Source of the DNA: an uncultured Thermoplasmata archaeon
GTDB taxonomy: Archaea > Thermoplasmatota > Thermoplasmata > Halarchaeoplasmatales > Halarchaeoplasmataceae
Length of the DNA stretch: 27,872 nt
Direction of reading: 5' to 3'
NCBI GenBank assembly: GCA_964399335.1
Contig: CAYNQI010000013.1
Coordinates: 1-27,872, forward strand
The first letter of the stretch is position 1. Each line of letters begins with the position of its first letter. Under the pieces are notes generated by a model that was not told where the DNA came from, did no database searches, and saw only the letters and a list, made by a program, of their open reading frames with translations. Shown here in pieces: positions 2,372 to 19,934 of this stretch. Both the position numbers and the translations under genes were made by a program.

Positions 2372-3262
2372 TCAATCGATATCTTTACTGTTAAATATCT
2401 TCTCAGATATGATCAAAGGAACAGCGATCCAAACCACTAATAAAACGATCATAACCCATGTATCGTAGGGGTGTATCTCGGGTTCTTTTCCTCCGAATTC
2501 TAGTGCCCATTCTCTCAAAGGTACTATGTTAAGTGCTAAAAGAGTGTACCATAGCATAACTGGATTGAACAATTGGAGCATAAAATACCATTGAGGCGGA
2601 CGCCCCATCTGTAGACGTTCCCAACCGAATGTCAATTCAGCTATGGCATACATACTGAAAAGCCATATGAATGTGAATAGAAAAAGAACGAAGATCGATG
2701 CTGACATGGACGAACTCTCCTCCTCAAATATGACCGAGAACATCATACTTAATGATATATACACACCCCCTAGTATAACCGAAGAAAGTATGAAAAGGTA
2801 GTATTCTGCCAATACAACCTCTTCGACCATCAAACTGATAATGATCCCCCCCATACCCAGACCAAAAACCACTGATATCGATAAGACGGTCCATAAACCC
2901 AAAAATTTTCCTGCTAAAACTTCCCCTCTGTCTATAGGGTAAGATAAAAGAAGTTCCATGGAACCGTCTTTACACTCCCTAACTATCGTCGAATAACCAA
3001 GTATGACACCAAGTATAGGGACCATGTATTCGATATACGTGGTCATATATATTATCGTGTTCTGGAGTCCCATCCAATCTTTATGAGCCTCCATGGATGT
3101 TCCATAGAACGAAACCATGACGGAAAGACCTAAAAATAACAAAGATAGTAAGATAACCCATCTGTTTCTAAAATTATATTTTATCTCTTTTTTGGCGATG
3201 AACAGTATCCTTTTCCACATCTTTTTAGAGTAAAATAGTTTGAGATCTTCTATCTTGATCAT
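2372..3262 (-). CDS. ABC-2 type transporter permease (NosY-like)
   Basis: Multiple TM segments; motifs IAKKE and E..DGSMELLLSYPIDRGEVLAGKFLG; ATGA overlap with the upstream ATPase. Confidence 0.88.
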   Translation of the reverse strand: MIKIEDLKLFYSKKMWKRILFIAKKEIKYNFRNRWVILLSLLFLGLSVMVSFYGTSMEAHKDWMGLQNTIIYMTTYIEYMVPILGVILGYSTIVRECKDGSMELLLSYPIDRGEVLAGKFLGLWTVLSISVVFGLGMGGIIISLMVEEVVLAEYYLFILSSVILGGVYISLSMMFSVIFEEESSSMSASIFVLFLFTFIWLFSMYAIAELTFGWERLQMGRPPQWYFMLQLFNPVMLWYTLLALNIVPLREWALEFGGKEPEIHPYDTWVMIVLLVVWIAVPLIISEKIFNSKDID

Positions 3263-4170
3263 CGCCCATCACCTGCTGTCAACCTGACGAACACCTCTTC
3301 AAGGTCCGGTTCTTTAACACTGAAGTTCGTGATCTCCATGCCTTCATCAAGGAACTTCCGTATCACACTCATCTTTTTTTCTGCACTGCAGTACAAAACC
3401 AGTTTACTATCTTCAACCCTTGCCCTCTCAACGTAATCCAAGTTATTGACTATCTCTAAACCTTTATCCAAGGGTTCAAATCGAAGTTCCAATCTATCTT
3501 TTAAAGAAAGTTTATCACCTAAAGTCTCAACATCATCTTCTGCTAGCATACTCCCCTCATTGAGGATACCGACTCTATCACATAATTCCTGAACCTCGGA
3601 AAGCACATGACTTGAAAGGAAGATTGTTTTTCCCTTATCTTTCAAACTCAAAATCTTATCCTTGATCCATCTTCTTATATTCGGGTCCAATCCAGCAGTA
3701 GGTTCGTCCAAGATCAATAGATCCGGTTTTCCGATCAAAGTTTGAGCTATCCCCAAACGCTGAGTCATGCCTTTGGATAGATGTTTACATTTTTTCGATC
3801 TTTGCTCTTCAAATTTGAAATCTTTCAAGATCCTATCGATCTCACTTTTAGAACATCCCTTAACCTCACATAAAAATTCTAGATTCTCAGAAACTGTCAA
3901 ATTACCATAAAAAGACACTTTTTCAGGTAGATAACCTAACCTTTGCCGAACTTTCTTACCTTTCTTTTTAACATCATAACCGTCTATCTCTATAGTTCCC
4001 TTTTCCCCCTTCATCAGACCGATCATAATCCTGATGGTAGTCGTCTTACCTGCTCCATTAGGTCCAAGAAATCCATAGATCTCACCTTCTTTAACGTCTA
4101 AATCTAGTCCGGACACTGCCTTGAAACCGTTAAATTTCTTTTCTAACCCACGTATCTTAATGATACTCAT
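3259..4170 (-). CDS. ABC transporter ATP-binding protein
   Basis: Walker A GPNGAGKT, signature LSKGMTQR, Walker B LLILDEPT, H-loop SSH. Confidence 0.95.
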   Translation of the reverse strand: MSIIKIRGLEKKFNGFKAVSGLDLDVKEGEIYGFLGPNGAGKTTTIRIMIGLMKGEKGTIEIDGYDVKKKGKKVRQRLGYLPEKVSFYGNLTVSENLEFLCEVKGCSKSEIDRILKDFKFEEQRSKKCKHLSKGMTQRLGIAQTLIGKPDLLILDEPTAGLDPNIRRWIKDKILSLKDKGKTIFLSSHVLSEVQELCDRVGILNEGSMLAEDDVETLGDKLSLKDRLELRFEPLDKGLEIVNNLDYVERARVEDSKLVLYCSAEKKMSVIRKFLDEGMEITNFSVKEPDLEEVFVRLTAGDGR

Positions 4171-17958: not shown

Positions 17959-17987
17959 ATTATCTTCAATTCAATATACCGGTCTAT

Positions 17988-18319
17988 ACTGTTCAGAGGT
18001 AGAGAACCCCACGGTTCTACTGTGGGGGTGAATACCGATAGTAAGTTATATACCTCCCCATCATATGTATATCTGTTAGTCGAGATGACCTCTCGGCGAC
18101 TTGGTTCAAACTAGCGGTAGGTGTCCGCTTTAACAAAAGTAAGCACGAACCATCTACCGACGTAAAACGAGATAACTCAGAGTCCTCACGGATAAGAGTA
18201 ACGGTAGCGTGGCACTGCCTTCGCCCGTCGGTCGTAACCCTTAGATGACCAAAGGGACAGTATGTTTTCATCCTGTCGGTAGGGAAGCCCCACGGCTCTG
18301 CCGTGTGGGAGGATGTCAC
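17988..18319 (+). mobile_element. Non-autonomous IS200/IS605-family (IS1341/tnpB-derived) miniature element, 332 bp
   Basis: Left-end hairpin 18007-18028 and right-end hairpin 18288-18309 share sequence with covarying stems. The right end GAAG-hairpin-AGGATG-TCAC mirrors IS608 GAAT-hairpin-AGTATG-TCAA. Removing 17988-18319 restores an in-frame stop for the interrupted protease. Confidence 0.88.
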
Positions 18320-18339
18320 CTGGTTTTCTTATTTTTACA
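18078..18339 (+). ncRNA. Candidate TnpB omegaRNA (reRNA/sotRNA) scaffold plus flank-derived guide
   Basis: TATA-like TTATATA (18046-18052) inside the element, several stems, the right-end hairpin and a T-rich 3' flank. Inferred, not demonstrated. Confidence 0.4.
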
Positions 18340-19934
18340 TAGATAGCGATTATTGTACCTATAATCATGATCCCAACTATAAAAAAGAACCACCACTCAG
18401 TTATGACAGGTATTATAGGCGACGTAGTTTCATCTGTACCATCATGATCATCATTAACGGATATTTGGAGTGGATCTGAGGTAGGTCCCTCACCGATTTC
18501 ATTTGATGCACTTAAAGTGTATGTAACTTGTCCAGATGCATCAAGGTCAGTAAAAACAGTTTCATCTGTTTCCCCTATCAATTCTCCATTCCTGTAAATG
18601 TTATATTTTGTTATAGGAGCTCCACCGTCGTCCATGGGTTCAGACCACTTTATTTCAACTTGCGGTTCTATAGAAACTATATTGACTTCTCTTACTTTAG
18701 AAGGTTCAACAGGAGATTCACGAGGTGTTAAATATATAGGTGTGCTGAAAGAACTCTCCCCGTGAACGTTTGAAGCAGTTATTTTGTATGTGTATGTTAC
18801 TTCGTTGTTAACTTCGGTATCCACATATTCTAGTGTGTCCGGAGAAAGATCCGCGATGATCTCTAAGTCATCGTTGGAGGAACGGTAAAGATCGTATCTT
18901 TCTATAGGATCTAGACCATGAAAACGTGGTGGATCCCATCTTATCTTAGTTCTTTCATCTTCTGAACTCCCTCTTACATTTTCTGGATGGGAAGGGACTT
19001 CAACTCCTGCAGCAAGATAAGCATTAACTAAACCGTATCCATAATAATCCGGATTCCCTAGGTCGATAGCCTGTTCATTGATCCTATCTCTTATTTGTCG
19101 ACCATCTAATCCGGGATTTGCTCCCATCATGATAGCCGCTGTACCGGCTACAAAAGGAGTTGCCATGGAAGTACCGATTTTATAACCATATTCACCACCG
19201 GGGATCGTCGAGAGGATTTTCTTATCCGTATCCCCTCCTGGTGCCGTAAGGTCTAACCAATCCCCATAATTACTGTAACCTGTTTTCTCTTTTTCATGAT
19301 CGACGGCTGATACGGCTGCGGTAGAATCATAGGCTGCTGGGTAATTCTCTGAATCTGTGGCATCGTTTCCGGCTGCAGCGGTCATATAGAGTCCATCGTT
19401 GTAAGCTTGATTCAACTGGATTTCAAAAGCACGACCCATAGGACTGCCATCCGCACCAAAACTCATCGATATGATGTCAGCACCGTTTTCCCTAGCGAAC
19501 CTTAACGCTTTAGACACTTCCTGCCATCTACCTCCTTTTTCCTCTATCACTTTTAAAGCCATAAGTTCAGCATCAGGAGCAACACTGGCTATTATACCTG
19601 CTACGTGAGTACCGTGCCCGTCATTGTCCATGGGGTCTTCATCATCATTCACAAAATCATAACCTATACCATCCCACATCTTATCTTCTAGATCCGGATG
19701 AGTGTAATCTATACCTGTATCTAAAACTGCGATCCTCACTCCTTCTCCTGTTTCACCTAGATCGTGAGCCAGATCGGCCCCGACCATCTTCCATGCCCAG
19801 TCATCACCCGGGTAGGGATATGTACTGTTGGATTGAATGGGATGTGAGGGTTCATGAGATTGTGCAATATTCAGACTGAGGATAGGCATCAATAGTAAAA
19901 TTGATATCAGAATAACAATGAATTTCTTATCCAT
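18186..19934 (-). CDS. Membrane-anchored S8 subtilase with two Fn3-like domains; last 44 aa derive from the inserted element
   Basis: Catalytic triad motifs VLDTGID, HGTHVAG and GTSMATP; signal peptide; C-terminal TM followed by KIRK. Confidence 0.92.
   Translation of the reverse strand: MDKKFIVILISILLLMPILSLNIAQSHEPSHPIQSNSTYPYPGDDWAWKMVGADLAHDLGETGEGVRIAVLDTGIDYTHPDLEDKMWDGIGYDFVNDDEDPMDNDGHGTHVAGIIASVAPDAELMALKVIEEKGGRWQEVSKALRFARENGADIISMSFGADGSPMGRAFEIQLNQAYNDGLYMTAAAGNDATDSENYPAAYDSTAAVSAVDHEKEKTGYSNYGDWLDLTAPGGDTDKKILSTIPGGEYGYKIGTSMATPFVAGTAAIMMGANPGLDGRQIRDRINEQAIDLGNPDYYGYGLVNAYLAAGVEVPSHPENVRGSSEDERTKIRWDPPRFHGLDPIERYDLYRSSNDDLEIIADLSPDTLEYVDTEVNNEVTYTYKITASNVHGESSFSTPIYLTPRESPVEPSKVREVNIVSIEPQVEIKWSEPMDDGGAPITKYNIYRNGELIGETDETVFTDLDASGQVTYTLSASNEIGEGPTSDPLQISVNDDHDGTDETTSPIIPVITEWWFFFIVGIMIIGTIIAIYVKIRKPGDILPHGRAVGLPYRQDENILSLWSSKGYDRRAKAVPRYRYSYP

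Follow-up and report, generated by a model that had tools for sequence, protein, structure and literature searches.

Palindrome-associated transposable elements (PATEs), which are non-autonomous, have been known in haloarchaea since 2011, examples from Haloquadratum being HqIRS46 and the terminal-only ISHwa23 (Dyall-Smith et al. 2011, PMC3119063), and PATE-like elements bearing a guide RNA have been noted in Geobacillus stearothermophilus (Meers et al. 2023, PMC10055086). The geometry of the ends is described for IS608. Its left cleavage site is located 19 nt 5' of the foot of the left hairpin, outside the element, and its right cleavage site 10 nt 3' of the foot of the right hairpin, inside the element, while the guides are the four nucleotides immediately 5' of each hairpin foot (PMC3201880). 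At the left end, guide position +16 pairs with position -3 of the cleavage site and +17 pairs with -4 (PMC5934647). In haloarchaea, an RNA termed sotRNA overlaps the tnpB gene of IS1341 elements in the sense orientation (Gomes-Filho et al. 2015, PMC4615843; RF02656), and RNA of the sot0042 type is now understood as a TnpB guide RNA (PMC4615843; PMC10055086).

The window analysed here is the whole stretch of 27,872 nucleotides and corresponds to contig C13 of the source genome (G000), an assembly of 1.57 Mb in 212 contigs that is 80% complete. We consider positions 17988-18319, with a probability of about 0.88, to be a PATE of the tnpB-only (IS1341) lineage, which lies 3' of a TCTAT sequence in the tail of a subtilase gene and combines ends suited to a TnpA acting in trans with a guide-RNA cargo. 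The insertion involves the following features.

17988-18319, + strand: the element (PATE, non-autonomous IS200/IS605); homology with copies elsewhere spans exactly these bases, and there is no credible ORF
17983-17987, + strand: target pentanucleotide TCTAT, consisting of the left cleavage site CTAT plus a T; host DNA and presumed TAM, recognized from the junctions and the empty site
18186-19934, - strand: membrane subtilase gene with S8 and fn3 domains, the last 44 codons of which (18186-18319) are read from the element
17971-17987, - strand: severed original end of the subtilase gene, comprising its last codons and stop and including the target pentamer, located by in-silico removal of the element

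The element is 332 bp long, contains no credibly coding frame and is too short for a transposase. This agrees with an earlier note on this DNA, made from the letters alone, which had described a transposase-less IS200/IS605 element of 332 bp with neither a tnpA nor a tnpB ORF: all of its coordinates were found as given, inspection of the frames revealed none that credibly codes, and the copies and the empty site described below confirm the boundaries. The possibility of a minus-strand protein gene was rejected: although the frame in question stays open over 100-111 codons in several copies, it lacks an ATG, and it is interrupted by stops in copy L010 and frameshifted in the window, L041 and L028. 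In several copies a stop-free minus-strand frame spans the entire element (111 codons in L008 and L009). We judge this open frame to be a by-product of G+C-rich structured sequence (50% in the element versus 40% in the window).

The insertion falls within the last five codons of the subtilase gene and replaces its tail. The closest homologues of the subtilase are 548-556 aa long, and four of five end just past the membrane anchor, with KPKGP followed by one or two residues; a homologue ending is given as KPKGPVY-stop. Deletion of 17988-18319 with retention of the pentamer resulted in a protein of 543 aa ending in KPDRPVY-stop, while deletion of the pentamer as well produced the ending KPAGILN-stop. 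The former result places the severed end of the gene beyond the element, at 17971-17987, and restoration of the subtilase tail at the same time validates the assembly of the window. No direct repeat shared by the two flanks was found in the window.

In order to find an empty allele of this insertion, an exact look-up was performed with the neighbouring protein of 156 aa, genus-level relatives being too diverged at this locus for such a comparison. The look-up returned five contigs from other samples, four of which are occupied at the left junction and one of which stops before it. No empty allele was present in these five contigs, and a pattern scan of metagenomes for the joined flanks was also blank. 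In an ENA contig from another sample (L041:3471-4072) the same left junction and element are followed on the right by the start of a response-regulator gene, which we take to be either an assembly chimera or a real rearrangement through the repeat. The contigs of three further samples break within the element.

Searches of 59 relatives resulted in matches in 13 genomes, all belonging to the same family. These matches fall into three classes: copies of ~333 bp, tnpB-only parents of ~1.45-1.48 kb and one-hairpin minis of ~51 bp. The first class comprises ~10 copies, 83-97% identical, at unrelated loci in six other genomes from four genera. When the junctions were compared across the source genome and seven related genomes, homology was found to begin at TCTAT in 16 of the 18 left junctions, the two exceptions reading TCCAT and TTTAT. 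The right end is GATGTCAC in 17 of 20 junctions, and beyond it the flanks are unrelated; the right end of L028 is GTTGTTAC, and the decayed copies L011 and L002 have degenerate ends.

A filled and an empty site are available for comparison. In a relative of the same genus (G001, contig C20) a copy sits at the stop codon of a gene for a 427-aa protein, the orthologue of which, on contig C38 of the source genome, is 96% identical in protein sequence. At C38 there is neither an element nor a duplication: the two flanks meet at TCATAT, which differs from the pentamer by one base. Since a TCTAT-like pentamer is kept at this empty site, the pentamer represents the target and not the element. A conserved host gene at the left junction of one parent copy (L024) takes its Ile-Glu codons from the complement of the pentamer, and in the orthologue of this gene in the source genome Ile-Glu is encoded by a different codon. 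Taken together, the empty site at C38, the subtilase tail and the L024 junction identify the pentamer as the target and show that nothing is duplicated upon insertion. The earlier note had proposed (T)CTAT as the target motif, with no target duplication, and had expected other copies to follow CTAT and relatives lacking the element to display the same boundaries; the left junctions, the empty site and the continuity of the host genes contradict it on none of these points.

Apart from the intact copy in the window, the source genome holds one decayed copy (on contig C44) and one mini (on contig C11). Each ~51-bp mini is a fusion of the left end's 5' half with the right end's 3' half, and by analogy these minis look like repeat-mediated deletions of the core, of the type described for Haloquadratum PATEs. 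The C11 mini (L003:1501-1556, at about 3703-3758 of the contig; ~51 bp) follows TCCAT, and the other minis (L014, L030, L027 and L025) follow TCTAT. In one other sample the C11 mini has the same sequence, with no polymorphism there.

The organization of the two ends is as follows.

17984-17987: left cleavage site CTAT, preceded by a T at 17983
18003-18006, + strand: left guide AGAA, occupying +16 to +19 if 17988 is taken as +1, directly 5' of the hairpin foot
18007-18027, + strand: left subterminal imperfect palindrome, with a 9-bp stem including one G-T pair and a 3-nt loop (ssDNA fold)
18284-18287, + strand: right guide GAAG, which predicts TCxC
18288-18309, + strand: right subterminal palindrome, with a 9-bp stem and a bulged T at 18306 (ssDNA fold)
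18316-18319, + strand: right cleavage site TCAC, forming the tip of the element; its last base is 10 nt from the hairpin foot

Terminal inverted repeats are absent; instead, imperfect subterminal palindromes are located on the same strand at both ends. The two hairpins constitute direct, not inverted, repeats with 78% identity over 27 nt, and the right palindrome doubles as the last helix of the RNA scaffold described below. The foot of the left hairpin is at +20, i.e. 19 nt past CTAT, and that of the right hairpin is 10 nt before the end of the element. Under the pairing known from IS608, a CTxT site is expected for AGAA and a TCxC site for GAAG. The sequences at 19 and 10 nt, CTAT and TCAC, conform to this; the guide/cleavage pairing rule and the IS608 spacing to which the earlier note had drawn attention therefore hold at both ends. 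The pair of +19 with -1 was reportedly established for IS608 by Barabas et al. in 2008. All three predicted bases match at each end, which with position and spacing fixed would happen by chance about once in 4096 cases. Furthermore, the two ends differ from each other at all three paired positions, and do so in a compensating way.

Parents having both ends in common with the element were identified in four relatives (G005, G012, G002 and G020). The parent in G005, the only copy measured in full, is 1481 bp long; its left end is 94.5% identical to that of the element over 55 nt and its right end is identical at 38 of 38 nt, while the left-end likeness of the parents reaches window position 18037. 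The single ORF of the G005 parent (L024:1628-2938) encodes an intact TnpB of 436 aa with OrfB_IS605 and TNB domains, its stop codon being located 48 nt before the right end; since tnpA is lacking, this parent is of the IS1341 type. The earlier note had suggested a search for an autonomous tnpA/tnpB parent, and parents with the same ends do exist in relatives, but with tnpB only. The parent copy L024 (L024:1411-1505 and 2987-3076, on G005:C52) is flanked by interior pieces of two unrelated genes, the orthologues of which are found on contigs C163 and C125 of the source genome. These flanks suggest either recombination between two copies or a chimeric contig.

A different element, on the 3.4-kb contig C101 of the source genome (L006:1375-3089), carries an apparently intact tnpA (135 aa, Y1_Tnp domain, 141 bits) followed by a tnpB of 440 aa. 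At its right end, guide (GAAG), linker and tip (TCAC) agree with those of the PATE; the left end and its hairpin are different. The C101 element was rejected as a direct parent because only the last ~20 nt of its right end agree, its TnpB is ~25% identical to the cognate protein and its right end gives no match to sot0042. Genes for TnpA were present in all five relatives that were examined, and none of their loci has matching ends; an element that combines tnpA with this left end was found neither on C101 nor at the tnpA loci of these relatives. The cognate TnpB occurs in relatives that also contain the short element (G005, G012 and G002) and was not found in the 80%-complete source genome, where the best match has 41% identity over 70 residues. 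TnpB-like matches with the TNB domain were also observed in the source genome at C12:8479-8697 (L005/L039) and C1:19422-19499 (L007); one of the two is an open frame of 162 aa and the other a weak match within a frame of 370 aa.

The earlier note had regarded the element as still mobilisable, which is more than the data support. Its ends are indeed intact, and the presence of copies varies between species; however, neither a TnpA with matching ends nor a product of excision could be demonstrated. Copies at unrelated loci and the one filled/empty pair point, from sequence comparison, to mobility, and the element may still be able to move in this genome. A possible, if on the whole unlikely, explanation is that a genuine PATE has become fixed and immobile in this genome, where no compatible TnpA (or TnpB) exists, its RNA having no partner. 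Such a fossil would fit the small complement of one intact copy, one decayed copy and one mini, the failure to find the cognate TnpB, the different left end of the sole tnpA element and the occupied state of the four contigs from other samples that extend to the left junction. It is less easily reconciled with ends that are intact and identical to those of parents with an intact tnpB, with the difference in presence at the C38 locus between species, or with an assembly of 80% completeness, repeats being the sequences most often absent from such assemblies. A further observation against the fossil is that copies in other genera are 94-97% identical, versus 77-78% for a flanking host gene within the genus, a difference that suggests recent horizontal spread of the element between genera. 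No exact match of the conserved core was found in IMG/VR, which was searched for a viral carrier.

We prefer to view the element as a PATE with ends suited to TnpA in trans, and turn to its cargo, which is composed of the following parts.

18038-18169, + strand: central module, found in the short elements only; no similarity to the tnpB or leader of the parent
18046-18053 and 18068-18074: TATA-like boxes at the start of the central module
18170-18319, + strand: TnpB guide-RNA (omegaRNA/sotRNA-like) scaffold, which stops at the right end and includes decayed remnants of the 3' tail of tnpB
18320-18335, + strand: presumptive guide segment, i.e. the flank, antisense to the 3' end of the subtilase gene; assigned from the way in which TnpB guide RNAs are built

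The earlier note had mentioned neither this cargo nor the location of the element within the 3' part of a gene. The TATA-like boxes are the putative promoter of the cassette. The best-conserved core of the module is at about 18080-18147; over 68 nt it has 94% identity to the C44 copy, compared with 75% for the rest of that copy. The possibility that the module is a remnant of the tnpB gene or leader of the parent was rejected, since the likeness stops at the last ~20 codons of tnpB. Searches for sequences in the genome, the parent or C101 to which the module would be antisense gave chance-level matches only.

The scaffold has three blocks in common with the right end of the parent: one of 55 nt, a short central one and the last 38 nt. 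The remnants of the tnpB tail correspond to its last ~20 codons and are in two different frames. In the parent, the scaffold is located on the tnpB strand, spans the tnpB stop codon and halts at the right-end boundary. The Rfam model sot0042 (RF02656) matched the window with 22.4 bits (E 8e-4) and the homologous stretch of the parent with 72.6 bits (E 8e-19), both below the gathering score of 88. Judging from these E values, the window and parent sequences are relatives that stand outside the curated family.

The consensus fold of ten copies contains 72 pairs, with 95.9% of cells paired. Double changes were found in five pairs, versus 1.4 in shuffled alignments (2 of 500 shuffles reach this number), the ten sequences being close kin. 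Many one-sided changes keep G-U pairing on the + strand only, which, among ten copies that are close kin, provides modest support for an RNA on the + strand. The stability of the fold relative to shuffled sequences (z of -1.5 for the + strand and -2.3 for the - strand) does not discriminate between the strands, and with a z of -1.5 the RNA fold does not exceed shuffled sequence in stability. Searches of the genome for a second target of the guides of the window and C44 copies, beside a TCTAT, resulted in chance-level matches only, which fits a self-directed logic.

The divergent second copy of the cassette (75%) on contig C44 is situated between thiD and mgtC (L002:1154-1415, minus strand). 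It has no left end, and its tip is mutated to GTCGT, with a second GATGTCAC 13 nt further on. The TATA-like box of this copy is ~33 nt upstream of the start codon of the divergent mgtC gene and, judging from this position, may now be the promoter of mgtC. No orthologue of the C44 copy was found in 42 genomes of the family, and a look-up for polymorphism at the locus returned no record for the neighbouring protein.

These observations bear on the idea that the cassette acts without TnpB, be it as an outward promoter, as an antisense RNA to the 3' part of the subtilase mRNA or through a function of the module itself. We consider this improbable. The idea would account for a module that is absent from the parent and yet is the best-conserved part of the element, for the retention of the cassette in a C44 copy that has lost its left end and cleavage site, and for the antisense orientation, relative to the subtilase gene, that any transcript running out of the right end would have. 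However, the searches for a complementary target were negative in the genome, the parent and C101, the C44 copy, lacking orthologues in 42 genomes of the family, shows no sign of long-term retention, and the scaffold is homologous to a known guide-RNA family. Finally, the notion that the locus is not mobile but a resident ncRNA gene between convergent genes, with IS605-like hairpins that arose by chance, can invoke the near-complete filling of the space between two convergent ORFs and the RNA-like conservation, but is refuted by copies with sharp common boundaries at unrelated loci in several genera, by the filled/empty pair at C20 and C38, by a subtilase gene interrupted so that its severed end is on the other side, and by tnpB parents sharing the same ends.

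For a PATE of the tnpB-only lineage, the following scheme can be proposed. As each hairpin is preceded by a guide that pairs with its own cleavage site, the element would be excised and reinserted as single-stranded DNA by a Y1 (HUH) TnpA made elsewhere. This TnpA would bind both hairpins of the top strand while that strand is single-stranded, and the guides would place CTAT and TCAC in its active sites by the pairing of AGAA with the CTAT of the left flank and of GAAG with the TCAC tip on the right ('peel and paste'). The strand would then be excised as a circle, the donor being resealed so as to join TCTAT to the flank, and the circle would enter a new site on the 3' side of a further TCTAT. 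Transcription of the cassette would start from its own box and proceed through the scaffold into the flank, which would become the guide. Together with a cognate TnpB, this RNA could direct a cut at the emptied site, recognized by the TAM TCTAT and about 16 nt of flank; the element might then be restored by recombination and its retention favoured. Guide-directed retention has been shown for bacterial relatives (PMC10055086).

Going further, the element might be no decayed parent but a distinct, self-promoted parasite of the TnpA/TnpB machinery that carries only a guide RNA, having exchanged tnpB for a promoter and a new, strongly conserved 5' RNA domain, and that has spread horizontally to at least four genera of soda-lake Thermoplasmata; we put this forward very tentatively and find it rather doubtful as a whole. 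If true, the 5' domain could provide the RNA with something that the guide RNA of the parent does not have, such as stability, improved loading into TnpB in trans or a role independent of TnpB.

The results overturn no current understanding, and their interest lies in what they add to it. An uncultured lineage of archaea, remote from Helicobacter, displays the end code of IS608 (positions, spacings and pairing) with no change. The element's own sequence suffices to predict its target TCTAT, which provides a ready-made presumed TAM and scaffold for the TnpB of this family. An archaeal miniature that bears only a guide RNA, together with a promoter-like box, supports the view of TnpA, TnpB and guide RNA as separable modules. 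For annotation, the element explains both a repeat that breaks contigs in these MAGs and the aberrant tail of 44 residues in the subtilase.

When compared to known systems, the ends are closest to those of IS608 from Helicobacter pylori: in both, site positions -3, -4 and -1 have the first, second and fourth guide bases as their respective partners, and at both ends guide position 3 is an A, as is site position -2. The two differ in target and tip (TTAC and TCAA in IS608, TCTAT and TCAC here) and in the absence of tnpA and tnpB from the present element, for which cleavage is predicted. With the PATEs of haloarchaea (PMC3119063) the element shares the lack of a transposase and of inverted terminal repeats, near-terminal palindromes in direct repeat, a 5' targeting sequence of 4-5 nt, insertion with no duplication, and ends common to transposons of the IS1341 type. 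The ~52-bp forms of Haloquadratum, which consist of the termini only and result from deletion between the palindromes, are matched here by the ~51-bp minis. Unlike those PATEs, however, the present one resides in a soda-lake family of Thermoplasmata and not in Halobacteria, and more than a simple deletion separates its core from the parent: tnpB has given way to a 130-nt module that contains TATA-like boxes.

The elements of Geobacillus stearothermophilus are likewise protein-less IS200/IS605 miniatures with a guide-RNA scaffold at the right end, which would depend on TnpA and TnpB in trans; the element described here is archaeal, has an archaeal-type TATA-like box instead of a bacterial promoter, and its function is predicted. 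Compared to the sotRNAs of Halobacterium, its scaffold occupies the same strand and the same position at the right end and has the first two helices and the terminal hairpin in common, but the version in the window lacks the internal stem of 46 nt, has another stem inserted and an extra 5' module, and reaches 22.4 bits only. The element is of a known PATE kind. New are the lineage of its host, its specificity for TCTAT and TCAC, the exact recurrence of IS608 geometry and the putative promoter module that replaces tnpB.
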